From contig NC_073390.1 of the NCBI RefSeq assembly GCF_028641065.1, positions 52,824,001 to 52,888,000 on the forward strand: a DNA stretch of 64,000 nucleotides. Direction: 5' to 3'. Position numbers and translations under genes: made by a program. The notes beneath the pieces are model-generated. The model had not been told where the DNA came from and searched no databases. It saw nothing but the letters and a program-made list of their open reading frames with translations. This document shows, piece after piece, positions 2,200 through 62,410 of the stretch (position 1 is its first letter; each line of letters opens with the position of its first letter). The stretch comes from Leucoraja erinacea. Its lineage: Eukaryota.

Positions 2200-3545
2200 T
2201 CCCTCTAAACCTTTCCTTTCCATGTACCATTTCAAAATGTGGTCTTTGAACTGTCTTTGAAATCTTGAAATTGTACCAACCTCAAGTATTTCATTTAGCA
2301 GCTCATTCCATATACCTGCCACCCTCTGTGTGACAAAGTGACCTCTCTGGTTCTGATTACATCATTCCCCTCTCATCTTGATTTCTCCACCCTGGGAAAA
2401 AGTTATTGTGTATTCACCCTATCGATTCCCCTCACGATTTTATAACCCTCTATAAGATCGCCCCTCAGCTTCCTGCGCTGCAAGGAATAAAGTCAGAGCC
2501 TACCCAACCTCTCCCTGTAGCTCAAGCCCCCAAGTACTGGCAATATCCCTGTTAATCTTCTATGTACTTGCTCCAGCATAATGGCATTTTCCCTACAGCA
2601 GGGTGACCAAAACGGGACAGAATACTCCAAGATACACAAAATTGCTGGAGAAACTCAGCGGGTGCAGCAGCATCTATGGAGTGAAGGAAATAGGCGACGT
2701 TTCGGGCCGAAACCGAAGGGTTTCGGCCCGAAACGTCGCCTATTTCCTTCGCTCCATAGATGCTGCTGCACCCGCTGAGTTTCTCCAGCAATTTTGTGTA
2801 CCTTCGATCTTCCAGCATCTGCAGTTCCTTCTTAAACACAGAATACTCCAAGTGCAGCTTCACCAAAATCTTGTAAAACTGTAACTTAATGTCCCACTTT
2901 CCAGACTCAATTCCATGATTGATAAAGGCCCGAATATCAAAAGCCTTCTTCACCACCCTATCCACCTGCAACTCCGCTTTCTGAGAGTTATGTACTTGTA
3001 CTCCTAGATCCCTCTGCTCTATAATACTCCTCAGGGCCCTACTGTTCATTGTGAAGGTCTTGCCTGGTATGACTTCCCAAACGCCAACACCTCACAATTA
3101 TCTGAATTAAACTCAATTATCCAACATACTTGACCGGTTGATCAATATCTCACTGTGATAACCATTTTTGTGTTTATGATATCAGTTATCTTAGGGTCAT
3201 CTGCAAAATAACATCATGCCTTGTATATTCACAAGCGCATTGTTAATACAGATGACAAACAACAATGGGCCCAACATTGATCACTAAGGCACACTACTAG
3301 TCACATGCCTCCAGTCCAAAACAACAATCTTCCTCCACCACCCTCTGCTTTCTATCATGGAGCCAATTCTGTATCTAGTTAGTGAAATCCCCGTTGGTCC
3401 CATGCAATCTAACATTCTAATGAGCCGAATCCTATCAAAGGCTTTGCTGGAGTCCATTGAGACTAAACCTCCCGCTGTGCTCTTATCAACCTTCTTGGTT
3501 ACTTCTTCAAAAAACTCACTCAAATTCATGAGACAATCTCTCGCA
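2200..3545 (-). mobile_element. Degraded CR1 ORF2 (RT region), interrupted by a Penelope-derived palindrome
   Basis: ORFs 3284..3562(-) CLMNLSEFFEEVT..MDSSKAFD and 2552..3049(-) QRDLGVQVH..LVKLHLEYSV are CR1 RT motifs. Confidence 0.85.
2632..2837. mobile_element. Penelope-derived fold-back element with partial hammerhead core, 15-bp TSD
   Basis: About 80-bp inverted arms around gtttcgggccgaaacc-gaa-gggtttcggcccgaaacgtc; TSD acagaatactccaag at 2617-2631 and 2838-2852. Confidence 0.8.
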
Positions 3546-3556
3546 CGCAAAACGTG

Positions 3557-3866
3557 CAGCACAGTGGCGCAGCGGTAGAGTTGCTGCCTTACCGCACCAG
3601 AGACTCAGTATCAATCCTGACTACGTGCTGTCTGTACAGAGTTTATACATCCTCCTGTGGATGCGTGGACTTTCTCTGGGTGATCCAGTTTCCCCACACA
3701 CTCCAAAGACTTACAGGTTTGTAGGATAATTGGTTTCAGTAAAATTTGTAAATTGCCCTTGGTGTATAAGATAATGTTAGTGTATGGGGTGAACACTGGT
3801 TGGCACAGACTCGGTGGGCCAAAGGGCCTGTTTCCACACAGTTTGCCTAAACCACGCTAAACTAAA
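3557..3866 (+). mobile_element. HE1-like tRNA-derived V-SINE
   Basis: Head cagtggcgcagcggtagagttgctgcc (A-box-like), V-domain-like core, CR1-like tail gggcctgtttcc and (taaac)n. Confidence 0.85.
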
Positions 3867-3932
3867 ACCCATGCTGAATAGAGCATGGCCATTTATCGGA
3901 AATATTAGAAAATAATTTTTCAAAATTTTTTC

Positions 3933-4224
3933 TTAAGGATAAAGGGGAAATCCTTTAAAACCGAGATGAGAAGAACTTTTTTCACACACAGTGGTGAATC
4001 TCTGGAACTCTCTGCCACAGAGGGTAGTTGAGGCCGTTTCATTGGCTATATTTAAGAGGGAGTTAGATGTGGCCCTTGTGGCTAAGGGGATCAGGGGGTA
4101 TGGAGAGAAGGCAGGTACAGGATACTGAGTTGGATGATCAGCCATGATCGTATTGAATGGCGGTGCAGGCTCGAAGGGCCAAATGGCCTCCTCCTGCACC
4201 TATTTTCTATGTTTCTATGTTTCT
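3933..4224 (+). mobile_element. CR1 3' end
   Basis: FTxRVVNLWNSLP-coding segment, 3'UTR, (ctatgttt)n tail. Confidence 0.9.
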
Positions 4225-5868
4225 AAATGGTGCTGGAAATGTAGAATTCTCTCCAACTACATTTTTGAATGCTCGTTTGATTTCTTATTTAAAATCTGAT
4301 TTAAGTAGATTTTGCTGGATATAATATACAAAACAAGCAAGGTGGAGTACAGGTGGGCAGATGAAGCTGGATACAGAACAGAATCTCTCATGTAAAGAAC
4401 ATAACAAACTCTATTAATTAGTTAAACAGGACTGAGGTGCTGAACGACCTACTTTTCCTTTATTTTAACTCCAGTGAGATTACGACAATGCCTGAGGGCA
4501 AAAAATTTAAAAAAAAGTGAAAACAGGATTTAAATATTATTTTAAAGCAGTTTGTTAATTCTGAACAATCTTTATTAAATTTGCATTTAATCCTTCCATT
4601 CTTAATCATTATATATCCACGTTAAACATCAACTTTATTGCTTCAATCTCAACTTTTCAGGACGTATTGTTTTCTTTCCATTTGGATTATTTAATACACC
4701 AGGGTTTTCACTTTGGCATGTGCACTTTTGCTCAGATAACTGCTCGTTTGCCTGGGGCTAACTAAGAGCAACTCCTCCGATTACAATCGACTCATAAAAG
4801 GCTAAAGTGTCGCAAGCACATAATCCCAATTTACCAAATATACTTCCCATTCATTCCCATTATTTAGCATTCCAACCCCAAGAATAACATTACATACAAA
4901 ACCCCAATCAACAATAAACATTCCAAGTTCTCTCTCCAGAATAAACATCCCAGTACATAAAACATATTCAGCCACATTGCCAAAGATTATTTATTTGTCA
5001 CAGCGTATTTTAATTTTTAAATAATTCATTGAAGAGCATATTATAATTGACCATTTAATTTGATTAATAATAATACATTATGTTATAATTTGAAGGAGAG
5101 ATTTAATTACAAATCTTTATTGAAAATTCATGTTTTCATTGGAAGTTATTCCATAATAATTCATCAGATTTCTCTCCTAATCAGAAGAGCAATTACTCCA
5201 TCCCCAATCTTCCACTCCTCTCCAGATGTTACAAGTAGCCTTTGCACTATAGACTGCTTCCTTGATTTAATCATTTTGGTATGTTATTTTGTCTGTGCCA
5301 CATTATTTCCCTATTTCAACACAAGCTCAATCAAACCATTCATTATCTAATGTATCTGGTTGACTTTTTGATATAAATTCAGTTCCCTCATTTAAGGTTG
5401 TCCCTGCAAGATTTTAGTTCACATCCCTACTTGTAATTCTCCCTGCAATTCCTTTATAATTATTTGATAAATAATGCCTATTATTTTTGCTGATGATAGT
5501 AGTGTTGCGATTTTAGCCATTGTTTGCAAGTGGTGTTATTGTCTTTGCATCTAGACAATATTTGCTGTAATCTTACTTACTCAGATATTCCTTGTGAAAT
5601 TTGATTCTGTTTTAGGTTCGGCCAATATCAATTGCAGTCATTAGTTCGCAATGTATCAACTATGTTCTCTTCAGCCACGTTAACACACTGGATACAACAT
5701 GTATTAATTAGCAATTAGACCAAACCATTAGTATTATGAATGGCAACTTTAAATTATTATTACTATTACTATTATTATGTAACAAATGCTCCACACAGAT
5801 AATTTTGGTGCTAATGGGAAAAACTTTGTTGAATCCATTTTCAAATCTAATTAAAAAAAAACATCACA

Positions 5869-6442: not shown

Positions 6443-6930
6443 GAAGACTGATTCCTGGGATGTCAGGACTTTCATATGAAGAAAGACTGGATAGTCTCGG
6501 TTTGTACTCTCTAGAATTTAGAAGATTGAGGAGGGATCTTATAGAAACTTACAAAATTCTTAAGGGGTTGGACAGGCTAGATGCAGGAAGATTGTTCCCG
6601 ACGTTGGGGAAGTCCAGAACAAGGGGTCACAGTTTAAGGATAAGGGGGAAATCTTTTAGGACCGAGATGAGGAAAACATTTTTCACACAGAGAGTGGTGA
6701 ATCTCTGGAACTCTCTGCCACAGAAGGTAGTTGAGGCCAGTTCATTGGCTATATTTAAGAGGGAGTTAGATGTGGCCCTTGTGGCTAAAGAGATCAGGGG
6801 GTATGGAGAGAAGGCAGGTACAGGATACTGAGTTGGATGATTAGCCATGATCATATTGAATGGCGGTGCAGGCTCGAAGGGCCGAATGGCCTGCTCCTGC
6901 ACATATTTTCTATGTTTCTATGTTTCTATG
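6443..6930 (+). mobile_element. CR1 3' end (young subfamily)
   Basis: ORF 6460..6831 GLSYEERL..LYSLEFRRLRRDLIETYKI..; (ctatgttt)n tail. Confidence 0.92.
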
Positions 6931-7545: not shown

Positions 7546-7546
7546 C

Positions 7547-8200
7547 TACACCGGACGAACGTAGTAGGTGAAGCAATATCTGCGGAGGCAAAAGATGTAA
7601 GTTGATAGAAACATAGAAACATAGAAAATAGCTGCAGGAGGAGGCCATTCGGCCCTTCAAGCCAGCACCGCCATTCATTGTGATCATGGCTGATCGTCCC
7701 CAATCAATAACCCGTGCCTGCCTTCTCCCCATATCCCTTGATTCCACTAGCTCCTAGAGCTCTATCTGACTCTCTCTTAAATCCATCCAGTGACTTGGCC
7801 TCCACTGCCCTCTGTGGCAGGGAATTTCCACAAATTCACAACTCTCTGGGTGGAAAAGTTTTTTCTCACCTCAGTCTGAAATGGCCTCCCCTTTATTCTA
7901 AGACTGTGGCCCCTGGTTCTGGACTGGCCCAACATGTTTCGGGCCAGGGCACTTCATCAGGACAACGAGGAAGGAGCAGAAATGGCCAGTATGTAGGAGT
8001 ATGAGGGAGGGGTGCGTTACAGGATGGAGGCAAGAGTTGGATGGAGTGGCGATTCGGGGCTGGATGGGATGATGGGGGGAGGTAAACAAAGGGAGAAAAA
8101 AGTTAGGTGAGGAGGTGAATGTGTGGGGAAGGATAAAAACAAGGAATGTGGGGAATCTGACATTAGAAAATTCAGAGAAGAGCATGGAGAGCCATGGAGG
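7547..8200 (-). mobile_element. Penelope-like element 3' region with hammerhead core, split by a CR1 insertion
   Basis: Minus strand reads ..SEFSNVR (like the NIEFSNF-type C-terminus of vertebrate PLE GIY-YIG ORFs), then a pyrimidine-rich UTR, then cctgatgaagtgccctggcccgaaac (7936-7961). Confidence 0.65.
7606..7934 (-). mobile_element. CR1 3' end nested in the PLE
   Basis: Reverse (ctatgttt)n tail plus CR1 C-terminal coding sequence. Confidence 0.88.
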
Positions 8201-10592: not shown

Positions 10593-10594
<2 letters not shown>

Positions 10595-11794: not shown

Positions 11795-12860
11795 AGAACA
11801 AAGAACACTGCAGCATAAGAACAGACCCTTCAGCACACAATGCCTGTGCCGAACATGATGCCAAGATCATCACTTCTTCAGACGAAGAAGGGTTTCGACC
11901 CGAAATCTCGCCCATACCTTCTCTCCAGAGATGCTGCCTGGCCCACTGAGTTACTTCAGCATTTTGTGTCTATTTACCATCTATCTAATGTTGCCAGGTG
12001 CATGCTTGACTTAAATTCTATCTTCCATTCCTCCGCCCATTTCAGCAACTGTATACTTTGATAGCTTTCCCACAGCCCACGACTCCAGCAATCTTGCAAT
12101 AACCCATAACCACCAATTCCCTGCATAACCATATACCTATCGAAAATTATTTTAAATGCTGCTAACATATCAGCTTCAACCACCAATCCCAGCAGCGTGT
12201 TCCAGGCACTCACCACTCTCTGAAAAAAACGTACCCCCCACATCTCCTTTAACGTTGGCCCCTCTCACCTTAAAACTATGCCTTCTAGTATTAGATTTTT
12301 CCATCCTGGGAAAAAGATTCTGACTGTCTACCCTCTCTAAGCCTCTCGTAATTTTATATACTCCTATCGGGTCTCCTAGCAAACTCCAGCATTCCGGAGA
12401 AAATAATCCAAGTTTGTCCAACCTCTCCCTGTAGCTTCTGGCCCCTAATCCAGGGATCATTCTAGTAAACCCTCCTCTGCACACTTTCCAAAGCCTCCAC
12501 ATCATTTCTGTACTGGAGTGAGCAAAACTGCACTCCATACTCAAAATGTGGCCTATCTAAAGCCCTATAAAGGTGCTCACCAAAGATAGACACAAAATGC
12601 TGGAACAACTCAGCGGGACAGGCAGCATCTCTGGAGAGAACGGGTGACATTTTGGGTTGAGACCCTTCTCCTATAAAGGTGCATCTTGACATCCTGACTC
12701 TTATACTCAATGCCCCAGCCTATGAAGGCAAGAATACCACATGCCTTCTTTACCACACACTTGCTTGGATTAAATTCCATCTGCCATTTCTCTGCCCATT
12801 TCTGCAGCTGATCTATATCCAGCTGTATATTTTGACAGCCTTTCTCACAGTTCACGAACC
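11795..12860 (-). mobile_element. CR1 ORF2 3' fragment with two PLE-derived inserts (about 11872-11975 and 12577-12669)
   Basis: ORFs 12176..12544, 12462..12710 and 12610..12855(-) carry CR1 motifs (WAEKWQMEFN, RPHFEYGVQF); second insert has TSD cctataaaggtgc at 12564-12576 and 12670-12682. Confidence 0.85.
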
Positions 12861-13394: not shown

Positions 13395-13664
13395 ATGCTA
13401 ATATTTTTGTAGCATAGGTTTTTTTTGAGCAAATTAACGCAGCCATATTAATAGTTTCTTTCCTGGCTTCCGAACCAATTCTGAGTGGATGCAATGGCAG
13501 TGCACACAACACTATTCCACTCCATGCAACTAAAGGCAGATTGAAAGCGTATAGCACCAAAACATAAATAACCAAACCAGTTTTAAGAGAGGGTTTTAAT
13601 GACCAAAAGCTACCCCCTAGTCATTTGTCAGGCACTTTGCTGGAGAAATCAATAAAACCTATAA

Positions 13665-13784
13665 GGGTCTCAACCCGAAATGTCACCCATTCCTTCTCTC
13701 CAGAGATGCTGCCTGTCCCGCTGAGTTACTCCAGCATTTTGTGTCAACCTTCGATTTAAACCAGCATCTGCAGTTCTTTCCTAC
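13665..13784 (+). mobile_element. PLE-derived short element, 10-bp TSD
   Basis: gggtctcaacccgaaatgtcaccc...ctac flanked by aaacctataa at 13655-13664 and 13785-13794. Confidence 0.75.
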
Positions 13785-13969: not shown

Positions 13970-14192
13970 AAGAAGGAACTGCAGATGCTGGAAAATTGAA
14001 CGTACACAAAAATGCTGGAGAGACTCAGCGGGTGCAGCAGCATCTATGGAGCGAAGGAGATAGGCAACGTTTCGGGCCAAAAAACCCTTCGGGTTTCCTG
14101 TCTGAAGAAGGGACTCGGCCCGAAACGTTGCCTATCTCCTTCACTCCATAGATGCTGCTGCACCCGCTGAGTTTCTCCAGCATATTTGTGTA
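13970..14192. mobile_element. PLE-derived palindrome with intact hammerhead core
   Basis: Inverted arms; ctgaagaagggactcggcccgaaacgtt at 14102-14129. Confidence 0.8.
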
Positions 14193-14340: not shown

Positions 14341-15672
14341 AAAAAGGCAATGGCCATTTCCAATAAGAAAAAAAATCTAGACACAAGGAACTGCAGATGC
14401 TGGTTTACAAAAAAAAACCCACAAAGTGCTGATGTTTAATGAGTCAGTCTGAAGAGGGGTCTCGACACAAAAGGCCGCCAATCCATCTTCTCTGGAGATG
14501 CTGCCTGACCCACTGAGTTACAGTAGAAAAAATCCAATGGCCCACTCTTGAAAATTAATAGCAGTTCAATCACTGACCAACTACTGACCAAAACATCACA
14601 CTGGACCTGTTGAATAAATTCTGCATCTGTAAGATGAAACCAGATAGTCGATGCACTGTGCAAAGTAACTTAGCTACTGACACCACAAGAAACCTCTCCA
14701 CCATCTATAAAGGTACTCATTAGGAATATGAATGAATATTCTTCACTTGTCCAGATGAATGCACATCCAATAAATAACACTCATGAAGTACCCCAATCAA
14801 GGGAAAAGTGCTTACATGAATAACATTGAAATATCTATCCTCACCTCCATCTAGACAACGCATAGCTGTTATACATTGGGCACTCCCAAACCTATAGTTT
14901 CCACCACCAAAAAAGGCTGTGTTCACACACCATCTTAATTTAAATGTAATTTACCAATTCCTCATCATTACTAGTTCTAAATCCTGAAATTCCCTACCAA
15001 TCAGCATTGTTGGTATCTTCAGTGTAAGGACAGAATGGCAGCATCAAGAAAGTGGCTGGTCACCACACTTTCAAAGTCAATTAGGGGTGGACATTAAACA
15101 CTAGTCTTGCTGTCTATGTCCCACACTCCCCCCCCCCCCCAAAAAAAAAAAAGAAATAACAGCTCTAACTCTGCAAATGCACCTCTCCCATGAAAATGGA
15201 ATTTATTTTCACCATCTGTCCAACCACCATCGACATTCCGTCTCGTCTCGCTACATGTTAGTACCCTCATTCACTTCCTAAATTAACAAATGTTCATCTG
15301 TGCGACACATTGCAATAACTTCACTTAATGAACTCCTCTTTCCCTGGTTTTTTTTTTTCAAGGGAAGCAACCTACTGGAGAGAGAGAGAGAGAAGTAGAG
15401 ATGGTTCACCCGCCATTAACTGATCAACAGCTGCAACATGGGCGAGACCTTATCGTGCGGATGGGGGCGAGGGAGTGGATGGACGATTGTTAACGGGGGA
15501 GCAGCAGTAAAGCATGTACGAGGCAATGTAAGACATCTCATCCAATTTCTTCACGCTGGTGAAAAGATTTCTGCAGAACATAGAACTGTACAGCACAAGT
15601 GCAGGCCATTTGGCCCTCAATGTCTGTGCTAAGCATGATGCCAAATTAAAGTAATTCCTTCTGCGATATATA

Positions 15673-16590: not shown

Positions 16591-16911
16591 TGTGTTTTGA
16601 TCACAGCCTCCCTCCAGGTCCCAGAGTTTAGCTGCACATGCAACATCCATTGTGATGTCTGCAAATGTGAGACCATGTTGTGGGGATTATATTGCATTTC
16701 AAGCTTCAATGCATTCCAGGGGCAGAAGTACCGCAACTGCGGATCTGACTGGGATTTGCTAATTCAACACAGGTTGATAAATCTTTCTCTGTGGAAGGCT
16801 CAGCAAACGCCGTACAACTTCAGGGTTCATTCAAACATGTTAGAGTTATTCAGGTGTTCGGAGACAGTAAAACCAATGTTTAGCTCGAGCCCTGGGACAC
16901 TGCATTGAATC

Positions 16912-17042
16912 TGTCTGAAGAAGGTTCTCGACCCGAAACATCACCTATTCCTGTTCTCCAGAGATGCTGCCTGACCTGCTGAGTTACTCCACCATTTTGT
17001 GTCTATCTTCGGTGTAAACCAGCATCTGCAGTTCCTTCCCTC
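16912..17042 (+). mobile_element. PLE-derived element with hammerhead core
   Basis: ctgaagaaggttctcgacccgaaacatc starting at 16915. Confidence 0.75.
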
Positions 17043-20110: not shown

Positions 20111-20149
20111 ATGGCCTTTCCATGTGGATATTACCAGGACTGAAAAATT

Positions 20150-20282
20150 GTGTAGGAAGGAACTGCAGATGCTGGTTTACACTGAAGATAGACGCAAAAA
20201 GCTGGAGTAACTCAGCGGATCAGGCAGCATGTCTGAAGAAAAGGAATAGGTGATGTTTCAGGTCAAGACCCTTCTACAGACT
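20150..20282 (-). mobile_element. PLE-derived element
   Basis: gtaggaaggaactgcagatgctgg...gtttcaggtcaagacccttc. Confidence 0.75.
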
Positions 20283-20618
20283 AAAACATTGTAGCTATGA
20301 GAAAGATGATATGTGCTAGTGTCGTTTTCTTGGATAGGGGGAGGCTGAGGAAAGAGTTAATTAATGTATATTAAATTAACAAAGTAAAACGGAAGGACAT
20401 ATTTAATTTACATGTGTCAGAAACCAATAAGCATCCATTGAAAGTAATTGGTTAAACGATTAGAGGGGAGATAAGGGAAATAGTTTTTATGCAGAGGGTA
20501 GTAGGTAACACTAGCTGAAAGGGTTGTAGAGGCAGAAATCCTCATCATATTTAAACATATGGCTTTTCGTGAAGAGCTGTAAGCTGCGGGGCTCTAAATT
20601 AGAGGAGAAGTGGCATGG

Positions 20619-24469: not shown

Positions 24470-24958
24470 GAAGCGGGACTTTTGGCCCACCACATCCCCG
24501 CTGACCAATGATCACCTGTACACTAGTTCTGTATTATTCCACCTTTGCATCCTACACACTAAGGTTAATTCACAGAAGCCAATTAACCTGCAAATCTGGA
24601 TAGACACAAAAAGCTGGTGTAACTCATCGGGACAGGCAGCATCTCTGGAGAGAAGGAATGGGTGATGTTTCGGGTCGAGACCCTACTTCCCACTGGTTCC
24701 TTCTCATCAGAGATGCTGCCTGTCCCGCTGAGTTACTCCAGCTATTTGGGTCTCTCTTTCGTTTAAACCAGCATCTGCAGTTCCTTCCTACACATTTAAC
24801 CTACAAACCTGCACGTCTTTGGAATGTGGGAGGGAATCAGAGCACCCACACAATCACAAAGAGAACCTACACACTCTGTATAGAAGCAACCATGCTCAGG
24901 TCAGGCCCGGATCTCTGGCGCTGTAAGGCAGCAACTCTATCGCTGCGCCACTATGCCA
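24470..24958 (-). mobile_element. HE1-like V-SINE interrupted by a PLE palindrome (24599-24795)
   Basis: Reverse SINE head at 24910-24958; insert flanked by a 16-bp imperfect TSD ttaacctRcaaaYctg at 24583-24598 and 24796-24811. Confidence 0.8.
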
Positions 24959-30341: not shown

Positions 30342-30550
30342 GTAGAAACAAACAACTGCAGATGCTGATTTACACAAAAGGACACACAGTGCTGGAGTAA
30401 CTCAATGGGCTGTATCTCTGAAGAAAATGGATTGGTAACATTTCAGGGCAGGACCCTTCTTCAGTCTGAAGAAGAGTCCTGACCTGAAACATCATCTATC
30501 CATGTTCTCAAGAGATGCTGCCTGACCCGCTGAGTTATCCAGCACTACAT
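30342..30550. mobile_element. PLE-derived palindrome with back-to-back hammerhead cores
   Basis: Centre ggacccttcttcag-t-ctgaagaagagtcc at 30451-30479. Confidence 0.75.
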
Positions 30551-30675
30551 TTGTCAAGGTTTGGAGAGATACAGGCCAAACATAGGCAAGTGGTGATGGA
30601 CCAGCTCAGGAAGGCAACTTGGTCAGCATGGACGAGCTGAACCGAAGGACCTGCTTCCATGCAGCACAAGCCTAG

Positions 30676-35195: not shown

Positions 35196-35299
35196 TTTCA
35201 TTCCACTTGTTTAATTTCACAATGATTGGGGCAACATATATTGTGTGTAACCCTTGGTCAGTAAGTCCCCTTTTCCAGCTTTCTTCTCTCCCACTTCAA

Positions 35300-35450
35300 A
35301 CAGTGTGAAGAAGGGTCTCGACCCAAAACAACAGCTATCCATCAACATCACCTATCCATGTTCTCCAGAGATGCTGCCTGTCCTGCTGAGTTACCCCAGC
35401 ACTTTGTGCCTTTTAGTATATTAATTAGCATTTGCAGATCCTTTGTTTCA
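35300..35450 (+). mobile_element. PLE-derived element (degenerate hammerhead core)
   Basis: gtgtgaagaagggtctcgacccaaaac..gagatgctgcc. Confidence 0.7.
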
Positions 35451-37186: not shown

Positions 37187-37735
37187 TTGATTAATCTCCT
37201 CCACCCACGTACATACCAATAGGTTGCCACTACCTCTTGTACGTGTGTTCTGCTGGTGGGACAGAACAGACCTAGGGATTGCGATGAATGAGTCTGACGT
37301 TATCTGATTCTTCGAGTGCTACCAGGCCAATACTTGATTATCTCTAATTTGTACAGCAATCTCAGATGTCAGTGGGAAGGTGAATTTTAGGCAAATCTTG
37401 CCCTGACCAAATTTAGAGCTTCGGTCAATACAGGGTATTCAATTTGATTTGGACTTTTTCTGCTTTAACATTGTAGTTATGAGATAACTAAATGTTTTTT
37501 CTAAACCATTTTAGAGGGCATTTAAAAGGTGACTAGTTTTCACAGATCTAGAGTTACTGGTACTTAAAGCACAGGGTGGCAAATTTTCTTTCCTGAATGA
37601 TGTTTTTGCACCAAATGTTTTTTTTATAACATTGCATACTTTAAAAATGTAATGTTATTAATATAAAATGAATTTAAATTCCACAGCCACCACATTTTTC
37701 CCACCACGTTTTAAATCCTGGCCTCTGGGTTACTA

Positions 37736-37998
37736 GGTAGACAAAAATGCTGGAGAAACTCAACGGGTGCGGCAGCATCTATGGAGCGAAGGAAATTGGC
37801 AACGTTTCGGGTCGAAACCCTTCTTCCGAAAACCCTTCTCTGGGTTACTAATCTTGTTCTATTTTTTTGCTATTGTGCATTTTCACAATGCCTTTGGAAA
37901 AATATTTAATTCCTTTCTCGACCCGAAACGTTGCCTATTCCTTCTCACAATAGATGCTGCCTCACCTGCTGAGTTCCTCCAGCATTCACTTCTACCCT
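37736..37998. mobile_element. Two PLE-derived arms; first (37736-37837) has a 13-bp TSD
   Basis: TSD ctctgggttacta at 37723-37735 and 37838-37850; second arm at about 37915-37998 in opposite orientation. Confidence 0.75.
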
Positions 37999-38002
37999 TA
38001 AA

Positions 38003-38440
38003 TTATTTTTTTAAATTATTTTTAAAATATGTTTTATTAGAAGAAAGTACAATAATGCAGTACATAAGTACCTAATACATAATGAGATATTACAGTTCAT
38101 GTACAACTTCTTGTTTCAAATTTAACGGAATAGAACAGAAAATGAGACAAGCCAAGATAGAGAAGTATCATAAGCCGTGATGATAGTGTTAGATCGTCAG
38201 ATGGTAAAGGAAGCCCGAAGAAAAGGTAGAAGGGGATAAAAAGAAGAGAAAAAAAAGAGATAGAGAGAAAGAAATGAATTACAAATTCCTCTTCAATCTC
38301 TTTATTCACCCTTCACCCGAATCTGAAACGTTTAATTTCTAAGGTTATGTTGCACCATATGCTTGTGAAAAGTTGATAAAAGAATACCAAATCATTAAGA
38401 ATTGTTCTGCGTTCCTGAAATGAGGAGTCTCATTTCTACC
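38003..38440 (-). mobile_element. L1-clade LINE 3' end
   Basis: Minus strand encodes EMRLLISG../QFLMIWYSFINFSQAYGAT (L1 ORF2 C-terminus-like), then a pyrimidine-rich UTR and ttctaataaaa. Confidence 0.6.
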
Positions 38441-41260: not shown

Positions 41261-42160
41261 AGGTGGATGAGCTTGAGGCACAGTTAGAAATTTGATGTTG
41301 TGGGAGTTCCAGAGACATGGCTGCAAGAAGACCAGGGCTGGGAACTGAATATTCAGGGGTATACCACCTATCGAAAAGACGGACAGGTGGGCAGAGGGGG
41401 TGGGGTAGCCCTGTTGGTAAGGAATGAAATTCAGTCCCTTGCGGGGGGTGACAGAGAACCAGGTGATGTAGTCAGTATGGATAGAACTGAGCAATTACAA
41501 GGATAAAAAGACCCTAATGGGAGTTATCTATGACCCTCCAAACAGTAGCCTGGATATAAGGAGCAAGTTGAATCAGGAGTTAAAATTGGCATGTAGCAAA
41601 GGCAATGGTACGGTGGTACCAGAGCCTACCAGGGAGAAGGCAATTCTGGATTTAGTCTTGTGTAATGAACAGGACTTGATAAAGGAACTCAAGGTAAAGG
41701 AGCCATAAGGAGGTAGTGACCATAATATGATGTTTTAATCTGCAATTTGAGAGGGAGAAGGGAAAATCGGAAGTGTCAGTATTACAGTTGGGCAAAGGGG
41801 ACTATGGAGGCATGAGGGAGGAGCTGGCCAAAGTTCACTGGAAAGATACCCTAGCAGGGATGACAGTGGAACAACAATGGCAGGTATTTCTGGGAATAAT
41901 ACAGAAGGTGCAGGATCAGTTCATTCCAAAGAGGAAGAAAGATTCTAAGGGGAGTAAGAGGCGACCGTGGTTGACAAGGGAAGTCAAAGACAGTATAAAA
42001 ATAAAAGAGAAATATAACATAGCAAAGATGAGCAGGAAGCCAGAGGATTGGGAAACTTTTAAAGAGCGATAGAAAATAACTAGAAAGGCAATACGGGGAG
42101 AAAAGATGAGGTACGAAGGTAAGCTAGCCAAGAATATAATGGAGGATAATAAAAGCTTCT

Positions 42161-42391
42161 GTTTAAGAAGGAACTGCAGATGCTGGAAAATCGAAGGTAG
42201 ACAGAAATGCTGGAGAAACTCAGTGGGATAGGCAGCATCTATGGAGCAAAGGAAATAGGCGCTGTTTTGGGTGGAGACCCTTCTTCAGACCCTTTTTCTT
42301 CTGAAGAAGGGTCCCAACCCGAAACATCACCTATTTCCTTCGCTCCATAGATGCTGCCTATCCCGCTGAGTTTCTCCAGCATTTTTGTCTA
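42161..42391. mobile_element. PLE-derived palindrome with hammerhead core
   Basis: ctgaagaagggtcccaacccgaaacatc at 42301; inverted arms. Confidence 0.8.
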
Positions 42392-42762
42392 GAAACATAG
42401 AAACATAGAAATTAGGTGCAGGGGTAGGCCATTCGGCCCTTCGAGCCTGCACCGCCATTTAATATGATCATGGCTGATCATCCAACTCAGTGTCCTGTAC
42501 CTGCCTTCTCTCCATACCCTCTGATCCCTTAGCCACAAGGGCCACATCTAACTCCCTCTTAAATATAGCCAATGAACTGGCCTCAACTACCCTCTGTGGC
42601 AGAGAGTTCCAGAGATTCACCACTCTCTGTGTGAAAAAAGTTCTTCTCATCTCGGTTTTAAAGGATTTCCCCCTTATCCTTAAGCTGTGACCCCTTGTCC
42701 TGGACTTCCCCAACATCGGGAACAATCTTCCTGCATCTAGCCTGTCCAACCCCTTAAGAAAT
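42390..42762 (-). mobile_element. Young CR1 3' end
   Basis: ORF 42468..42749(-); reverse (ctatgttt)n tail. Confidence 0.9.
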
Positions 42763-44277: not shown

Positions 44278-45324
44278 TTAATGGGTCCTTTTCATAATGG
44301 AAGGCAGTGTCTAGTGGAGTACCGCAAAGCTCAGTGCTGGGACCGCAGTTATTTACAGTATACATGAATTATGTAGATGAAGGGATTAAAAGTAACATTA
44401 GCAAATTTGCAGATAACACAAAGTTGGGTGGCAGTGTGAACTGTGAGGAGGATGCTATCAGGATACAGGGTGACTTGGACAGGTTGGGTGAGTGGGCAGA
44501 TGCAGTTTAGTGAGGATAAATGTGGGGTTATCCACTTTGGTGGCAAAAACAGGGTGGCAGATTATTATCTGAATGGTTTCAAGTTAGGAAAAGGGAAAGT
44601 ACAACGAGATCTGGGTGTCCTTGTACATCAGTCACTGAAAGTAAGCATGCAGGTAAAGGAGGAAGTAAGCTAAAGGCATGTTGGCCTTCATAACAAGAGG
44701 AGTTGAGTATAGGAGCAAATAGGTCCTTCTGCAGTTGTACAGGTCCCTGATGAGACCACACCTGGAGTATTGTGTGCAGTTTTGTTCTCCCAATTTGGGG
44801 AATGACATTCTTGCTATTGTGGGAGTGCAGCGTAGGTTCACGAGGTTGATCCCCAGGATGGCGGGACTGTCATATGTTGAAAGAATGGGTCGACTGGGCA
44901 CGTACACACTGGAATTTAGAAGGATGAGAGGGAATCTTATTGAAACAAATAAGATTATTAAGGGATTGGACACGCTAGAGGCAGGAAATGTTCCCAATGT
45001 TGGGGGTGTCCAGAACCTGGGGCCACAGTTTAAGAATAAGGGGTAGGCCATTTAGAACAGAGATGAGGAAAAACTTTTTCACACAGAGACTTGTGAATGT
45101 GGAATTCTCTGCCTCAGAAGGCAGTGGAGGCCAATTCTCTGGATGCTTTGAAGAGCGAGTTAGATAGAGCTCTTAAAGATAACGGTCAAGGGATATGGGG
45201 AGAAGGCAGGAACGGGGTATTAATCGTGGATGATCAGCCATGGTCACAGTGAATGGCGGTGCTGGCTCGAAGTACCGAATGGCCTCCTCCTACACCTATT
45301 GTCTATTGTCTATGGTCTATTGTC

Positions 45325-45680
45325 TAGACACAAAATGCTGGTGTAACTTAGCGGGACGGCAGCATTTCTGGAGGCAAGGAATGGGTGATATTTTGGGTCG
45401 AGGCCCTTCTTCAGACTGATGTCAGTGGAGTGGGCAGTTCAGAGATAAAATGTAGCCGGAGACTGTAAGACTGGTAAGCGAACTGGGAAGGGGGAGGGGA
45501 TACGAAGGGAACTGCAGATGCTGGTTTAAACCAAAGATAGACACAAAATGCTGGAATACCTCAGTGGGACAGGCAGCATCTCATCTCAAACTGCAGAAAG
45601 TTCTTGACCCAAAACGTCACCCATTCCTTCTCTCCAGAGATGCTGCCTGTCCCGCTGAGTTACATCAGCAATTTGTGTCA
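45325..45680. mobile_element. Cluster of PLE-derived segments
   Basis: gacacaaaatgctgg..gggtcgaggcccttcttcagac, followed by further arms. Confidence 0.7.
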
Positions 45681-45682
45681 AG

Positions 45683-45685
<3 letters not shown>

Positions 45686-45732: not shown

Positions 45733-45840
45733 GGGGAGAAGGCGGGATACTGATTGTGGATGCTCAGGCATGATCACAGTGAATGGCTCGAAGGGCTGAA
45801 TGGCCTACTCCTGCACCTAATACATATATTTATAATTCAT

Positions 45841-46029
45841 AGGTACACAAAAAAGCTGGAGAAACTCAGCGGGTGCAGCAGCATCTATGGAGCGAAGGAA
45901 ATAGGCAACGTTTCGGGCCGAAACGTTGCCTATTTCCTTCGCTCCATAGATGCTGCTGCACCCGCTGAGTTTCTCCAGCTTTTTTGCATACCTTCGATTC
46001 TCCAGCATCTGCAGTTCCTTCTTAAACAC
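45841..46029. mobile_element. Near-perfect PLE-derived hairpin, 14-bp TSD
   Basis: Arms centred on aacgtttcgg-g-ccgaaacgtt; TSD tatttataattcat at 45827-45840 and 46030-46043. Confidence 0.85.
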
Positions 46030-46870
46030 TATTTATAATTCATCCTTGATTCTGCTTATATTTATTTGTTTGATGGAGGTACCTGAGATGATCTTGGGTA
46101 TTGAACACAATTACAGATTCAGAAACAGTATTTTGTGTACATTTTTGGGACTTTTGTTAAATGCAAAATTTTGCTTTGGATTTTGCTATCTCCACAAATT
46201 CTTATATAATCACAATCTTTATGATATCAGTTGATTACATATTTCAGCAGAAGAGCCGGTATCATTTCCTATTAAAACATAGATTGCCTACTTTAACCTG
46301 TCCTTGAAATACGATCACTCCTTCATTAGTGAGATCGTGCATTTCAGTTTTTAACTCCAATTACTGTCCAAGACACAATCAGGAGACTGGCCATTTTCAC
46401 AAAAAAAGTTAAAATGACTTCACATTTTATATACACCCTTGACATTTTTTCATTACCAATACTTAGTAAATGCAATAAAGTGTTGTATTTTCTAAAAACG
46501 AATCACACTGCATCATTTAATTAGTGTGTACAATTCAATGGAACCACTGAAAGGATTTTCATATTAATTGCACTTCGTGAAATCAACGTGTTAAAGGGAT
46601 TGACATTTCTATCATTGTATTATCCTAGCATTTTTTTTACATAGGTGGTTTAATTTTTTTGTCAGCACATTAGGAATAATTTAAGTTCAATCCCTGTCGG
46701 CAGGATGGGTGTAGGAGAGCAATTAAAACTGAAAAGCTCCGTTTTTGCTCCATTTTCACCTATCTATATTTTTAATGCTTGTTTTGGAACTGGGCCTCTC
46801 ATTAATAAATGTAAATTGGGGTTGTATCAAATACCTGAATCTTAGATGCAACTTTACAGTCCGGTGAGAT

Positions 46871-48289: not shown

Positions 48290-48950
48290 AAGCCATCCAG
48301 AACTCTGCTGCCCATGCTCCAAGCTCCATCAAATTCTATTCATCCATCACCCAGAATCTCTCTCTTGCTGACTCCAGGTCAACTAATGTATTGATTATTA
48401 TGTGGTCTTGCCACTTCCTATTTTGCTTCAGCTATTTAATCTACCGTGTATCCTCTGGTTCTGACCTCTTGCTCATCCCTGACATCAACTGTTCTACAAT
48501 TGGTTGCATCACCTCGAGTTGTCAATGGTCCAAGCTCTGGAATTCCTACCACCCCCCCCCCCCCCCCCCCCCCTCTCCCACTGCCTCCCTTCCAAAAATA
48601 CCCCAATACCTATCTATTGTTTAGGAAAGAACTGCAAATGCTGGAAAAATCGAAGGTAGACAAAAATGCTGGAGAAACTCAGCGGGTGAGGCAGCATCTA
48701 TGGAGAGAAGGAATAGGCGACGTTTCGGGTCGAGACACTTCTTCACACATCAGTCTGATGTATGAAGAAGAATCTGATGTCTGAAGGAGGGTCGGGACCC
48801 GAAACGTTGCTTATTTCCTTCCCTTCATAGCTGCTGCTGCACCCGCTGAGTTTCACCTGCATTTTTGTCTACAATAACTATCTGTCTTCCTTTCTTCCTT
48901 TTGGGGCAACTTAAACAAATATATAATCCCTGACCAAGCTTTTAGACAAT
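48290..48950 (+). mobile_element. Old L2-like LINE 3' remnant containing a PLE palindrome (about 48618-48871)
   Basis: catccagaactctgctgccc..aagctctggaattcc..tgaccaagcttttag; PLE flanked by caatacctatct (48604-48615) and caataactatct (48872-48883). Confidence 0.6.
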
Positions 48951-52464: not shown

Positions 52465-52855
52465 CAAGGATCTGCAGGCGACGGTTTACAAAAAAAAAAT
52501 TTCACAAAGTGCTGGAGTAACTCAGCGGGCCAGTCAACATTTCTGGGAACGTGGATGGGTGACGTTTTGACTTCAGACTGTGGAACGGTCCCGATTCGAA
52601 ATGTTTTGTGTTGGAACCCTTCTTCAATTTGACCAGATTCACATGTGCTAATGTATCAACCCTCAATGCACCAATATCGCATGACACAACAACTTTCAGT
52701 GGAAAGGTTCATGATGAAGTTGGAATCTGTTTGGGCTTTTGTGGCCAGTGGAATGGGTGATCTGTCTGAAGAAGGATCTCGACCCAAAACGTCCTTCTCT
52801 CCAGAGATGCTGCCTGTCCCGCTGAGTTACTCCAGCATTTTGTGTCTATCTTTGG
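52465..52855. mobile_element. PLE-derived arms (inverted, degenerate)
   Basis: gctggagtaactcagcggg.. and ctgaagaaggatctcgacccaaaacgtc at 52766. Confidence 0.7.
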
Positions 52856-53007
52856 CAGAATGGTTGGAGTTGTTTTAGCTCTTATGGAAGTCAACCGTTT
52901 TTCCTCACTGCAAAATCTGTGGACAATTATTGATCAGACATTGATGGGCATTAATTCATTGTTATTTTCCAGTAATCTTGCAGACCTCACGGTACAGAGT
53001 AGAATTA

Positions 53008-53233
53008 TGCCCCTGTCCCACTTAGGAAAGCTGAACGGAAACCTCTGGAGACTTTGCGCCCCACCCAAGGTTTCCGTGCGGTTCCCGGAGGTTTTTGTCA
53101 GTCTCCCTACCTGTTTCCACGACCTGCCACCTCCGGCAACCACCTGCAACCTCTGGGAACTGCACGGAAACCTTGGGTGGGGCGCAAAGTTTCCACAGGT
53201 TTCCGTTCAGGTTTCCTAAGCGGAACAGGGGCA
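53008..53233. mobile_element. Palindromic MITE, same family as 36961-37186, opposite orientation
   Basis: tgcccctgtcccacttagg..cctaagcggaacaggggca; flanks tta/taa. Confidence 0.88.
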
Positions 53234-59178: not shown

Positions 59179-59705
59179 TTGTGTTTTTTGTTTTGCATCG
59201 CGCAAATGAAAAACCTTTAATAAAAGTTGAATAATTATTTAATGAATGCGGGTGGGAGGGAGGGGGGGGGGGGAAGAGTTACAGAAAACATATTTCCTTT
59301 CTCAGGCATTTGTAATACCAGGTTACTTTAATTAAAAAGACGTTTTGGAAAGGTTCATCATCAGCCCACATCTTTAGATGTTTAAAAACATTCTTTCATT
59401 TAATATTCCACAATTGGAAAAAATGTAAAGTCCACACAATTAAAAATATATTTTTTCTTGAGATATTTGTGAGAGGAAAGTAATCCCACCTATACGCTAG
59501 TAACGGATAAATGGAGTGCAATGCCATAAATAACTATGATGCACTAAATGGGCATCAATTTAAAAAACTAAATCTGTGATGTATGTGTATTTACAATCAC
59601 ATAACCTCTTTGCAGTTTGAATGAAGGTAGAAAAGATATTTCCAGATCGGGTAAATTTGTGCCTCATTGGGAACTTAATTTTAACCTAATTCCTCATAGC
59701 TGAAA

Positions 59706-60350
59706 TGTTTAAGAAGGAACTGCAGATGCTGGAAAATCGAAGGTACACAAAAATGCTGGAGAAACTCAGCGGGTGCAGCAGCATCTATGGAGCGAAGGAA
59801 ATAGGCAACGTTTCGGGCCAAAATCCTTTGTTTTCACGATAATGTGCCAGATGAACTCAAGGATCATAGCCAACAGATTACATGATATGTGTAGAAAGGA
59901 ACTGCAGATACTGGTATACACCAAAGGTAGACACACTAGGCAATAGACAATAGGTGCAGGAGTAGGCCATTCGGCCCTTCGAAGCCAGCACTGCCATTCA
60001 ATGTGATCGTGGCTGATCATCCCCAATCAGTACCCCGTTCCTGCCTTCTCCCCATATCGCCTGACTCCGCTATTTTTAAGAGCCCTATCTAGCTCTCTCT
60101 TGAAAGCATCCAGAGAACCTGCCTCCACCGCCCTCTACCGAGGCAGAGACACAAAATGCTGGACTAACTCAGCGGGACAGGCAGCATCTCTAGAGAAAAA
60201 GGATGGGTGACGTTTCGGGTCAGGACCCTTCTTCAGATTGATGGTATAGGGGAGGGAACTGGAGGTAAGAAAAAGCCAGAACAAAGCAGATGACCAAGGA
60301 ATGGAGATGCCCATAGTAACCCATTGTTGGCTGGGGTGGAGGTATACTTG
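59706..60350 (-). mobile_element. PLE-derived segments with a nested CR1 tail (59935-60147); best-preserved hammerhead core at 60209-60236
   Basis: Minus strand reads ctgaagaagggtcctgacccgaaacgtcaccc. Confidence 0.75.
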
Positions 60351-60543: not shown

Positions 60544-60557
60544 CTGCCATCTTGTGG
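60544..60557 (-). promoter_or_regulatory. Candidate CTCF site (reverse)
   Basis: Minus strand ccacaagatggcag, one mismatch to CCASYAGRKGGCRS, in non-repeat DNA. Confidence 0.45.
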
Positions 60558-61182
60558 TGGTGTGTTTGCAGATTACTGTCAAGAAAGTGGCATGTTATTT
60601 CCATACACTTGAGCAAGGAATAGGTTAATAACGTGTTCAGCAATGCAGTAACATTTTTCAAGTTGGGAGAAACATTGTAAGGCAATATAATAAAATGACA
60701 AGCTGTGATTTGATGAAAAACAGATATGTTCGTCCATGGAAATTCGGTGTGCAGTTTGACATAGAAAACGGGTACAATGAACTGACAGCTGGGATTACAC
60801 TCTGCCTAGTTTATTTTCGTTGATTTTAAATATTAGTCGTTGTGTAAAATGTGCTGCTGGTTTTCCATTACTCATTTTCATAGCAAATTTCACTCCCAAA
60901 ATTTATTTCAATGAAATTCAAATATTCCAAATTTTAAACGCATCTACCTGCCAAGGAACAGGCAGAGTGCAAATCAATTATCGAACGCAAAATTGCCTGG
61001 TTCTCTCTCGGCACGCAAGGCTAAAAGTGGGGCTTATCTGCTGCTTTTGTTTAAAGTGAGAAGCGAATGCTGACGTTACGTTAAAACCATTTGATAAAAG
61101 TTGCCTTCAGATTACCAGCACCAAATGGGACGGCAGTATCAACTACTTGCGATACCTTGCTCCTTATATATGGTTCCATTGA

Positions 61183-62063
61183 ATAGAAACATAGAAACAT
61201 AGAAAATAGGTGCAGGAGTAGGCCATTCAGCCCTTCGAGCCTGCACGGCCATTCAATATGATCATGGCTGATCATCCAACTCAGTATCCTGTACCTGCCT
61301 TCTCTCCATACCCCCTCCATACCTCCATATCCCTTTAGCCCAGTGGTTCCCAACGTGAGGCGTACGCCCCACAGGGGGGCAATTTGATTTTTAAGGGGGG
61401 CAATTGAGCGCGACTGAGGAGGTCTGGGTCCAAATTTTCGATTTTTTTTTTTTGGGATTTTCCATCAGGTAAACATATGTAGTTTATGTTTCAGATGTTA
61501 TTTTGAGTAAATATTTTTTTTTTGGGGTAAAAAGGTCTTTATTGTGTAGTTATTACATAATCACCGCGCCATCGCTCTTCATGCACGTCGCACGAAGCGC
61601 GCGAGGTCATCGGAGAACCTTATTTATTGAATTGGATTTAGAAATGCGATTCAAAGAGCTTTTGCTAAGTTACCCTTATAATATCTATTTCCTCCATTTT
61701 CTCTCAGGGGAAAGCAAGGGGCATCAGGATTTTAGAGGTGATTAGGTGGGGAATGGCCAAAAAAAGGTTGGGAACCACTGCTTTAGCCACAAGGGCCACA
61801 TCTAACTCGCTCTTAAATATAGCCAATTAACTGGCTTCAACTACATTCAGTTGCAGAGAATTCCAGCGATTCGCCACACTCTGTGTGAAAAAGGTTTTCC
61901 TCATCTCAGTCCTAAAAGATTTCCCCTTTATCCTTAAACCGTGACTCCTTGTTCTGGACTTCCCCAACATCGGGAACAATCTTCCTGCATCTAGCCTGTC
62001 CAACCCCTTAAGAATTTTGTAAGTTTCTATAAGATCCCCCCTCAATCTTCTAAATTCTAGCGG
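61183..62063 (-). mobile_element. Young CR1 3' end split by a hAT element
   Basis: Reverse tail at 61183; ORF 61827..62045(-) RGDLIETYKILKG.. Confidence 0.9.
61341..61780. mobile_element. Non-autonomous hAT (Charlie-like) DNA transposon, 440 bp
   Basis: 14-bp TIR cagtggttcccaac / gttgggaaccactg; perfect 8-bp TSD ctttagcc at 61333-61340 and 61781-61788. Confidence 0.92.
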
Positions 62064-62314
62064 GTAGCGAATAGTATTGAATCAGGTATTTAATGCCAAC
62101 AAAGACACATTTTTACCCATTTTCCAGTCCCCGGAGTGTTTAGTTGAAATGTGGTTCTGGTCTATATGTAGAAAAATATTTAACACAGAAACAAGAAAAA
62201 AAAACCTGTAGTACATCATCTGGGGATTCACAAACTCTCATTATCTATCAGTTAAAACATTATTGGCTTAACCTGTCACATTAGAACACCAATCTAGACA
62301 AGTTATATTAAGAA

Positions 62315-62410
62315 GTCTGAAGAAGGGTTTCCTTCCCGAAACATCATCCATCCTTTTTCTCCAAAGATGCTGAGTAACTCGCTGAATTACTCCAGCACTT
62401 TGTGCCCATC
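62315..62410 (+). mobile_element. PLE-derived element with hammerhead core
   Basis: ctgaagaagggtttccttcccgaaacatc at 62317. Confidence 0.7.

Follow-up and report, generated by a model that had tools for sequence, protein, structure and literature searches.

Dispersed hammerhead-bearing repeats in Leucoraja erinacea are most probably 5'-truncated pseudo-LTR insertions of a Penelope-like element

The short repeats scattered along the 64-kb stretch of DNA analysed here (the window) are, with high probability, 5'-truncated insertions of the 3' pseudo-LTR (pLTR) of an EN-bearing Penelope-like element (PLE), the pLTR bearing a minimal type I hammerhead. The parent RT likely made the copies from uncut RNA, and these then decayed without detectable selection. 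All seven hammerhead cores named in the earlier note were found in place, five on the plus strand (14102, 16915, 30466, 42301 and 62317) and two on the minus strand (7936-7960 and 60212-60236, or 60209 with NUH). A strict descriptor, comprising the core, G10.1-C11.1 and 3/4 stem II pairs, gave 6 matches in the window compared with a mean of 0.03 (max 1) over 100 Markov resamples; the core at 30466 fails this descriptor. With a profile of the element's 3' end, 31 arms were recognized, which form 21 insertions (10 head-to-head pairs and 11 singles; Table 1), in agreement with the earlier estimate of about 20 elements, one per 3 kb.

The core at 7936-7960 is a different or older remnant outside the main family, since it is matched by neither family model, has G at position 17, and runs directly into CR1-like sequence. 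In four of the other six named cores (16915, 30466, 42301 and 62317) ACAU replaces the ACGU palindrome; core, ACGU and H17 are all kept only at 14102 and 60236. Of the 31 window arms, 2 keep core and ACGU. Searching the window with Rfam, a check proposed in the earlier note, returned no hammerhead family at E<=5 but hairpin look-alikes only, below gathering scores. Genome-wide, the motif is present as 10,833 exact 31-mers, and the copy number is roughly 5-6 x 10^5 (about half a million).

Table 1. Stubs, pairs and hammerhead cores in the window (offsets are relative to the first base of the core)
Feature	Position	Strand	Details
Head-to-head pLTR stub pair	2626..2841	.	Left arm from +10, no tail; right from +6, tail; start of core missing in both arms; flanking 14-15 bp target-site duplication
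Hammerhead-like core CUGAUGA outside main family	7936..7960	-	G17, no family body, joined to CR1-like sequence
Solo stub	11877..11998	+	From about -5, core damaged
Solo stub	12575..12671	-	From +5
Solo stub	13663..13784	+	From +7, extends into tail
Head-to-head pair	13970..14192	.	Tail on left arm only; core in right arm (14102-14129) keeps core, ACGU, U17 and 3/4 stem II pairs
Decayed stub	14444..14521	+	
Solo stub	16908..17040	+	From -6, tail; core 16915 with ACAU, one stem II mismatch
Solo stub	20148..20283	-	From -1, tail, core damaged
Head-to-head pair	24578..24795	.	Left from -4; right from +34 with tail
Head-to-head pair	30349..30564	.	Joint exactly at TCAG-T-CTGA palindrome (30461-30469); core 30466 without C11.1
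Stub with small internal duplication	35279..35442	+	
Head-to-head pair	37729..38003	.	86 nt separate arms
Head-to-head pair	42157..42406	.	Core 42301 (4-bp stem II, ACAU); tail on left arm only
Longer stub	45323..45501	-	About 87 nt of 3' UTR upstream of core retained; G12 lost
Head-to-head pair	45509..45685	.	Left from +48 with tail; right from -5
Head-to-head pair	45820..46030	.	Joint at stem II/GAAAC palindrome (+11/+11), no core; 14-bp target-site duplication
Head-to-head pair	48613..48880	.	Both cores damaged; tail on left arm only
Two decayed facing arms	52495..52858	.	179 nt apart
Stub	59704..59837	-	From about +7, tail
Stub with some 3' UTR	60149..60279	-	Best core 60236-60209: perfect stem II, ACGU, C17, 1-bp stem I; predicted cut between 60209 and 60208
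Solo stub	62314..62438	+	From -3; core 62317 with ACAU

The same 90-130 nt unit forms the 3' pLTR of a 3.8-kb RT and GIY-YIG PLE. The layout of this element is a 5' region, RT, Cys linker, GIY-YIG, pyrimidine-rich UTR, core, 90-nt body and 35-nt tail, and its copies terminate at two fixed 3' positions, around +92 and +129. Among 30 loci chosen by GIY-YIG protein, a hammerhead core lies downstream, inside the pLTR, in 27 (at 85-122 nt from the stop in 25); the other three keep the body and have deletions within the core. RT motifs occur upstream of the GIY-YIG, and the two share one frame, albeit with weak Pfam scores: in an 800-aa frame (locus L231) RVT_1 (E 0.022) and GIY-YIG (E 5e-4) both fall under the Pfam cut-off, and a 152-aa GIY-YIG piece (locus L017) is over it. 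Top Atlas matches, at 0.98, were RT/HTH_animal/GIY-YIG clusters. The C-X4-C-X2-C linker that precedes the GIY-YIG follows the Neptune/Nematis pattern CX2-5CxxC (PMC8557442). Partial tandems were also observed: in 7 of the 30 loci chosen by 5' DNA, the tail leads into 5' sequence of the element, and pLTRs flank the ORF in 6/10 refetched loci, about 3.8-4.0 kb apart in the five uninterrupted ones. The Penelope origin suggested in the earlier note holds. In the long copies that carry RT, the unit follows the stop codon of GIY-YIG. Among 20 + 10 long loci no intact full-length ORF was found (longest frames, 666 and 800 aa), which counts against our explanation. Some PLEs retain a spliceosomal intron close to the 5' end. 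In this element a donor-like site lies about 35 nt past the tail, and the UTR, considered as an intron, gave one genomic copy; no spliced joint occurred among the matches listed, at an RNA depth too low at this site.

The earlier note had also taken the units for a ribozyme-bearing non-autonomous family. Such a separate family, retrozyme- or SINE-like, would have its own short master RNA and be mobilised in trans by Penelope protein. It would agree with the two fixed 3' ends, with the density in dispersed samples (about 0.26 copies per kb), and with the predominance of stubs: when 505 copies were located by body alone in 1,204 kb, 437 (87%) had no UTR recognised by six references that cover some UTR variants only, and began in or just before the core. 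PLE-derived retrozymes are moreover described in vertebrates, including one cartilaginous fish (10.64898/2026.07.22.740005), and share with the repeats the pLTR origin, the type I hammerhead and short non-coding copies (10.64898/2026.07.22.740005, PMC7229834). However, retrozymes are defined as tandem repeats containing two or more complete hammerheads in succession (10.64898/2026.07.22.740005), whereas the stubs observed here are scattered, occur singly or head to head, and belong to a parent that has an ORF. No tandem array of the pLTR unit exists in the window, and a direct neighbour within 80 nt accompanies only 35/505 copies, those inspected being partial duplications. The stub sequence variants are also found behind the GIY-YIG ORF, 5' ends and pair junctions differ from copy to copy, and the copies decay without selection on the core. 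The proposed non-autonomous family was thus not sustained, and we consider it quite improbable. An ORF-less master RNA identical to the pLTR may have been the source of the stubs.

The head-to-head pairs are asymmetric. In 52 scored pairs, a list that double-counts a few arms and may include duplicated loci, 41 had one tail, 11 had none and 0 had both, while about 8 two-tailed pairs are expected if tails are independent. An inverted, 5'-truncated copy with a 30-40 bp tail on one end is the arrangement of EN+ PLEs. Arm identity was 0.83 within pairs vs 0.75 for random pairs, and 182/505 copies had an inverted partner. Fold-back junctions exact at TCAG-N-CTGA numbered 1,107 in the genome, while the control gave 0. 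Target-site duplications of 14-15 bp flank 2 of the 7 window pairs checked; the other five have no clear duplication, which counts against our explanation. Long terminal inverted arms and target-site duplications would also be expected if the palindromic pairs were MITEs amplified by a DNA transposase, but this reading is contradicted by the single tail, by centres that vary between pairs in place of a shared internal sequence between symmetric TIRs, and by arms made of pLTR sequence. We regard it as extremely improbable.

The family retains the hallmarks of a minimal type I hammerhead. C3-A9, G12-A14, A15.1, U16.1 and H17 are the majority state in all three subfamilies, and the G10.1-C11.1 pair is present. 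So are the extra base after A9 and a palindromic stem III, as the earlier note had read them (extra A, ACGU). Its suspicion of a weak stem I (~2 bp) and doubtful activity was also justified: the family has a 2-bp stem I, and the 'best' copy, at 60236, a 1-bp one, both short of the 4-5 bp of minimal type I hammerheads, and no longer stem I adjoining the cut was found in three window copies and three long-copy references. In predicted folds the hammerhead stems have a probability of at most 0.14, and the preferred hairpin pairs the core with +29..+40. Most copies are broken. Core and stem II are intact in 61 of the 201 core-containing copies; G10.1-C11.1 is G-C in 139 and G-T in 27 (CpG decay), CG stands at 15.2/16.2 in 108, and every hallmark is kept in 41.

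By the earlier note's own test, the core should be better conserved than its neighbours. This expectation failed in the unbiased set of 68 UTR-anchored copies, where 34 core changes were observed vs 39.7 expected after base matching (p 0.21); catalytic G12 was changed in 20/67 of these copies and a control CpG G in 18/67. The 201 core-containing copies are a biased set, as inclusion required alignment through the core. In these, the raw change rate was 5.1% in the core vs 7.3% downstream (Fisher p 4e-4), and base matching gave 102 changes vs 119.9 (p 0.053); this lower core rate, borderline after base matching, counts against our explanation. The copies decay without detectable selection on the core. 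Since the core is kept no better than base-matched neighbours, the copies are unselected; inactivity of the parent ribozyme does not follow. Individual genomic stubs are likely inactive.

Copies end preferentially just in front of the core. Of the 505 copies, 154 begin at -7..-1 (81 with unique flanks, some of which may be unrecognised UTR, and 60 inverted), an end rate of 0.153 per nt vs 0.008-0.011 at +13..+26 and +30..+44. The pile sits at the TCAG-T-CTGA palindrome, also a fold-back point, and TCAGTCT here presumably fits the initiator consensus. Short cDNA would stop at the hammerhead's front edge, the likeliest reason being that this is where the transcript starts. Not all templates began at the pile, since it is 7 nt wide rather than one base, and the upstream pLTR extends 161-567+ nt past it in 4/7 full-length loci. 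The existence of these long upstream pLTRs also fits an RT stop or fold-back at the hammerhead palindromes on long RNA primed at the 3' pLTR. Inverted copies peak at both palindromes, -5 (20) and +11 (20), and palindromes at inverted PLE junctions have been read as self-priming (PMC3846280). However, 81 of the 154 ends have unique flanks and no inverted partner, and a hairpin would presumably stop the RT 3' of the core (+20..+40) and not 5' of it. We regard an RT stop as plausible without thinking it probable. It competes with the inferred transcript start only, and leaves the identity of the repeats unaffected.

Had the hammerhead cleaved the element's transcripts in vivo, with cut RNA serving as a real template, some copies should start at +29. 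Ends at +27..+29 are indeed in slight excess (22/421 at-risk copies, 0.018 per nt vs 0.008-0.011 alongside), and among the first 100 of 2,266 and the first 100 of 1,271 matches, counted by eye, 26 lay at +29, 13 at +30, 9 at +28 and 19 at +31. Two G-U-for-A-U changes in one subfamily also leave stem I and stem II pairable. Yet exact +29 starts occur in 5/437 copies only; the bump lies at +27/+28 next to an almost empty +25/+26 (1 and 0), a shift of calls that CpG decay would produce; about 10 of those 26 reflect deletions or short-repeat joints (ACCC/GCC in stem II and after the cut); and the low predicted probability of the hammerhead stems speaks against cutting. Nor was a pile of read starts or ends seen at the cut site among the matches listed, in oligo-dT and single-cell libraries, with a threshold of a fifth of depth that would miss a minor cut product. 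A cut template is therefore unlikely.

These RNA runs possibly come from an organism other than that of the window. Stub-bearing reads made up about 0.35% of oligo-dT reads in two runs (45,356 and 47,310 of 12.9 million). Depth was 3,000-5,000 per strand over the stub vs 0-25 over the 5' interior (1784-2999), as expected of passenger transcripts. The circular RNA that self-cleavage yields in retrozymes would appear as go-back joints at the cut site; the best-supported joints listed join elsewhere, in oligo-dT libraries, which lose circles. Alternatively, the template might have been an antisense RNA with its start at the short end of the stub (about +95), a proposal made for PLEs in PMC3846280. 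Single-cell reads are 3-7 times commoner on the minus strand over the stub, and a loose end at +96 was found in 355 and 471 reads (consensus agreement 0.48 and 0.41). The loose-end consensus resembles what we take to be a template-switch adapter. A loose end of poly-T in the UTR suggests that oligo-dT primed internally on the antisense strand, which is A-rich; the +96 signal is absent for the other subfamily among the matches listed and may come from one locus, the runs may be foreign to the window's organism, and sense RNA served in the in vitro reaction of the PLE (PMC11167929). We consider antisense templating very improbable.

By analogy with the anole PLE (PMC11167929), the parent protein of our pLTR insertions would nick target DNA and begin cDNA synthesis at either of two internal positions, hence the two 3' ends. 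Priming at the transcript's 5'-proximal pLTR would yield products of about 100-135 nt, and at self-complementary stretches the cDNA may fold back, or two cDNAs anneal, to form inverted pairs. Any cutting by the parent ribozyme would take place in a protein-assisted dimer. We tentatively suggest, at somewhat less than even likelihood, that the hammerhead region served as a landmark of copying rather than as a cutter: transcription would start at the initiator-like palindrome, priming at the 5'-proximal pLTR would mass-produce the stubs, and the ribozyme palindromes would be the turning points of inverted copies.

Minimal hammerheads (min-HHR) are known from metazoan PLE pLTRs, with thousands of copies in fish, coelacanth and Xenopus (Cervera and De la Pena 2014, PMC4209133); the excerpted text of PMC4209133 names no cartilaginous fish among the hosts. 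The repeats share with them the CUGANGA/GAAA core, the extra base between 9 and 10.1, G10.1-C11.1, the loopless palindromic 15.2-16.2, mostly dispersed single motifs from truncated PLEs, and opposite-strand pairs. In contrast to Schistosoma min-HHR, stem I has 2 bp rather than 4-5 and stem II 4-5 bp rather than 7-8, and the copy number here far exceeds the reports in PMC4209133. Neptune/Nematis-type EN+ PLEs (PMC8557442, PMC3846280) have in common with the parent a single RT and C-terminal GIY-YIG frame, the linker, partial-tandem pLTRs, inverted 5'-truncated copies, the one-end tail, junction palindromes, an initiator-like pLTR motif and solo pLTRs; unlike in these, short stubs dominate here, with 5' ends piled at the hammerhead front. 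The Anolis Poseidon element PAc (PMC11167929) likewise has two internal RT start sites defining the tail, a hammerhead located about 100-130 nt ahead of these sites, a cut site devoid of RNA-seq ends, and uncut RNA as main template. It differs in clade, in an ORF that starts inside the hammerhead, and in a ribozyme shown to cut with protein help, whereas the ribozyme here is known from sequence.

As a ribozyme finding the case is ordinary, since minimal hammerheads have already been published from PLE pLTRs and the majority of the present copies are broken. The PLE integration route and the role of the hammerhead are questions raised in PMC8557442 and PMC11167929, and such a number of sharp-ended copies lets both be tested by counting. 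If the hammerhead region is indeed a landmark of copying, half a million insertions would form a base-resolution fossil record of PLE integration, perhaps with a small class copied from ribozyme-cut RNA. About a third of copies lie in long hairpins; together with the abundance of stub reads, these may matter for the double-stranded RNA load in these fish.

All seven hammerhead cores for which the earlier note had given positions were found in the window at those places (7/7). A strict descriptor, comprising the core, the G10.1-C11.1 pair and three of the four stem II pairs, matched six times in the window vs 0.03 times in Markov resamples. No Rfam hammerhead family matched the window, which gave only sub-threshold hairpin matches. 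The element's 3' end, used as a profile, recovered 31 arms in the window; by our count these represent 21 insertions, 10 of them head-to-head pairs and 11 single. The core at 7936-7960, which has G17 and adjoins CR1-like sequence, was matched by neither family model. In the 2.19-Gb genome, one exact family 31-mer occurred 10,833 times and its reversed control 0 times. Dispersed samples totalling 600 kb contained 158 copies, which extrapolates to about 5.8 x 10^5 genome-wide. The family stretch is present in at least six organisms, and no indexed RNA record was listed as containing it. CUGAYGA cores were considered as a second family, which was rejected: the 20 inspected of 1,361 matches were point variants of the same family. 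We found no account of this family in the literature; Repbase or Dfam may contain it.

In longer copies, the core is preceded by the last part of a GIY-YIG frame. Among 30 loci picked with a GIY-YIG protein bait (112,889 candidates, 150 scored), the core lay downstream of GIY-YIG in 27 (85-122 nt beyond the stop in 25 of them), and in the remaining three it carried deletions. Further upstream, the long copies have RT motifs and a C-X4-C-X2-C linker, a kind of linker given as a Neptune/Nematis mark in PMC8557442. Walking 5', the pseudo-LTR (pLTR) and tail continued into the element's 5' region in 7/30 loci. pLTRs flanked both sides in 6 of the 10 refetched loci, with a spacing of about 3.8-4.0 kb where uninterrupted. 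None of the 30 long loci had an intact ORF, the longest frame being 800 aa, and the nearest long copies were about 96% identical. Hence what repeats in the window is the 3' end of an EN+ Penelope-like element (PLE) that is old and amplified. The Penelope identity proposed in the earlier note stands, but not the status of a non-autonomous family of its own: the stubs are tied to a GIY-YIG-bearing parent, and a separate non-autonomous master is unlikely. The UTR was also considered as an intron ending at the CAG before the core, which was rejected because the spliced junction corresponded to one genomic copy.

The first GIY-YIG search had returned a different PLE, located at contig ends, which was rejected as the family's parent. 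Its 759-aa RT + GIY-YIG frame is intact at three contig ends; a pattern search of one of these loci, L019, found no hammerhead core, and at another, L020, the element stands beside a long tandem array and telomere-like repeat. Before the PLE frame comes a 433-aa frame whose GDSL-lipase match is weak (E 0.003, below the cut-off), and the element is possibly a young subtelomeric two-ORF element. Among other window repeats, the two-copy palindromic element is unrelated to the hammerhead family, and the frame in the GC-rich repeat had no Pfam match. LINE 3' fragments, CR1-like and RT-bearing, are numerous, and several stubs lie inside or against them.

Locations of the second PLE (contig ends) and of other repeats (window)
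Feature	Location	Details
Different PLE	L019:1560-3839 (G000:C23 start); also L020, L021 (ends of C37, C39)	
Palindromic MITE-like element, 2 copies	window 36964-37183, 53005-53236	arms 83-89 nt, 54 nt apart
Another MITE-like element	window 56015-56487	nested inverted arms, 68 and 51 nt
GC-rich repeat	window 62430-63235	directly after last stub; 215-aa frame
LINE 3' fragments	window 6445-6831, 31148-31582, 34663-35295, 40855-41283, 46868-47344, 50574-51494	
Tandem array	window 25518-25939	periods 45 and 64 nt

With C3 of the core numbered +1 and the preceding base -1, the predicted cut falls between +28 and +29. The 3' ends of stubs lay near +92 or about 35 nt beyond, and loose RNA ends were found at +92 and +129 in runs whose source organism may differ from that of the window. 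Two such 3' ends fit two internal RT start sites, as presented in PMC11167929. The 301 copies found in 804 kb included 58 head-to-head pairs, in a list where a few arms enter two pairs. The tail was present on one arm in 41 of 52 scored pairs, on no arm in 11 and on both arms in 0, and the one-tailed layout is that described for PLEs in PMC8557442 and PMC3846280. Arm-arm identity was 0.83 within pairs vs 0.75 for random copies, and 14-15 bp target-site duplications flanked 2/7 window pairs.

Body-only detection in 1,204 kb yielded 505 copies. Of these, 220 had a unique flank, 182 were inverted, 68 included UTR and 35 stood in tandem. The 5' ends of 154 copies fell at -7..-1, with a density of 0.153 ends per nt vs 0.008-0.011 at +13..+26 and +30..+44. 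This pile lies at the palindrome TCAG-T-CTGA, which is shared by UTR variants that have diverged elsewhere, and exact fold-back junctions centred on it numbered 1,107 genome-wide. A second inverted-copy peak, at +11, lies at the palindrome that stem II forms with GAAAC. For rotifer PLEs, PMC3846280 describes an initiator-like motif as well as palindromes where inverted copies join; we found no paper tying junction palindromes, an initiator motif or piled 5' ends to the PLE hammerhead edge. For this step we prefer, at roughly even confidence, that stubs arise from RNA that starts at the hammerhead front. Alternatively, and somewhat less probably, the RT may stop or fold back there. Uncut RNA would be copied by target priming from two internal sites.

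Signs of cutting at +28/+29 were sought in RNA and DNA. Across four RNA runs (two oligo-dT, two single-cell), from an organism that may not be that of the window, the stub was abundant and the element's 5' interior nearly empty, a pattern that suits passengers within host RNA. No piles of read starts or ends were present among the places listed at a threshold of one fifth of depth. Separately, L231:1661 (+96) had a loose end in 355 and 471 single-cell reads, mostly minus strand, with a consensus resembling the template-switch adapter; these reads may reflect antisense RNA whose 5' ends lie at the short terminus of the stub, or a single expressed locus. In DNA, 5/437 copies started at +29, with a small bump at +27/+28. 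A by-eye tally of the 200 matches listed gave 26 starts at +29, 13 at +30, 9 at +28 and 19 at +31, short repeats accounting for about 10 of the 26; the +29 counts neither confirm nor exclude a cleavage footprint. A recurring +25 start (about a quarter of 100 matches listed) was rejected as a pLTR end, being a 46-nt piece inside another repeat. That repeat family (L280-L289, contig G000:C1) captured +25..+71 of the pLTR, often on both facing arms, 0.2-1.6 kb apart.

The family's core, extra base, G10.1-C11.1 pair and palindromic stem III are like those of the minimal hammerhead in PMC4209133; its stem I has 2 bp only. In one subfamily, A-U became G-U in stem II (33 copies) and stem I (46 copies), and no two-sided changes were seen in the hammerhead stems of core-containing copies. 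Core and stem II were kept in 61/201 core-containing copies, and the palindromic ACGU too in 41; in the window, core and ACGU were kept only at 14102 and 60236. Better conservation of the core than of its neighbours was not borne out. The raw change rate in the 201 core-containing copies (5.1% vs 7.3%, p 4e-4) favoured the core, but the signal vanished in the unbiased, base-matched set of 68 UTR-anchored copies (34 core changes vs 39.7, p 0.21). The catalytic G12, which lies in a CpG, was lost in 20/67 and a control CpG in 18/67. Because the core changed about as base-matched neighbours did and G12 was lost about as often as the control, the genomic copies are under no detectable selection.

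Folding programs, which are blind to tertiary or protein help, gave hammerhead pairs a probability of at most 0.14 in three window copies and three references. These mostly favoured a hairpin in which +29..+40 pairs with the core and stem II; in five of the six, the predicted +3..+12/+29..+40 pairing hides the core, and it could be a ribozyme off-switch. For the dimer that cleavage requires, the nested part was predicted at -7 to -10 kcal/mol (one +4.5), against -21 to -26 when the best dimer was folded (-10 in the +4.5 copy). Dimeric cleavage was described by Lunse et al., as related in the review PMC6765202. To cut, the ribozyme of the parent would have to dimerise and would probably need protein as well. 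The data show the layout, ends, pairs, palindromic junctions and lack of selection on copies. In conclusion, both the element from which these stubs derive and the motif they carry are of known kinds.
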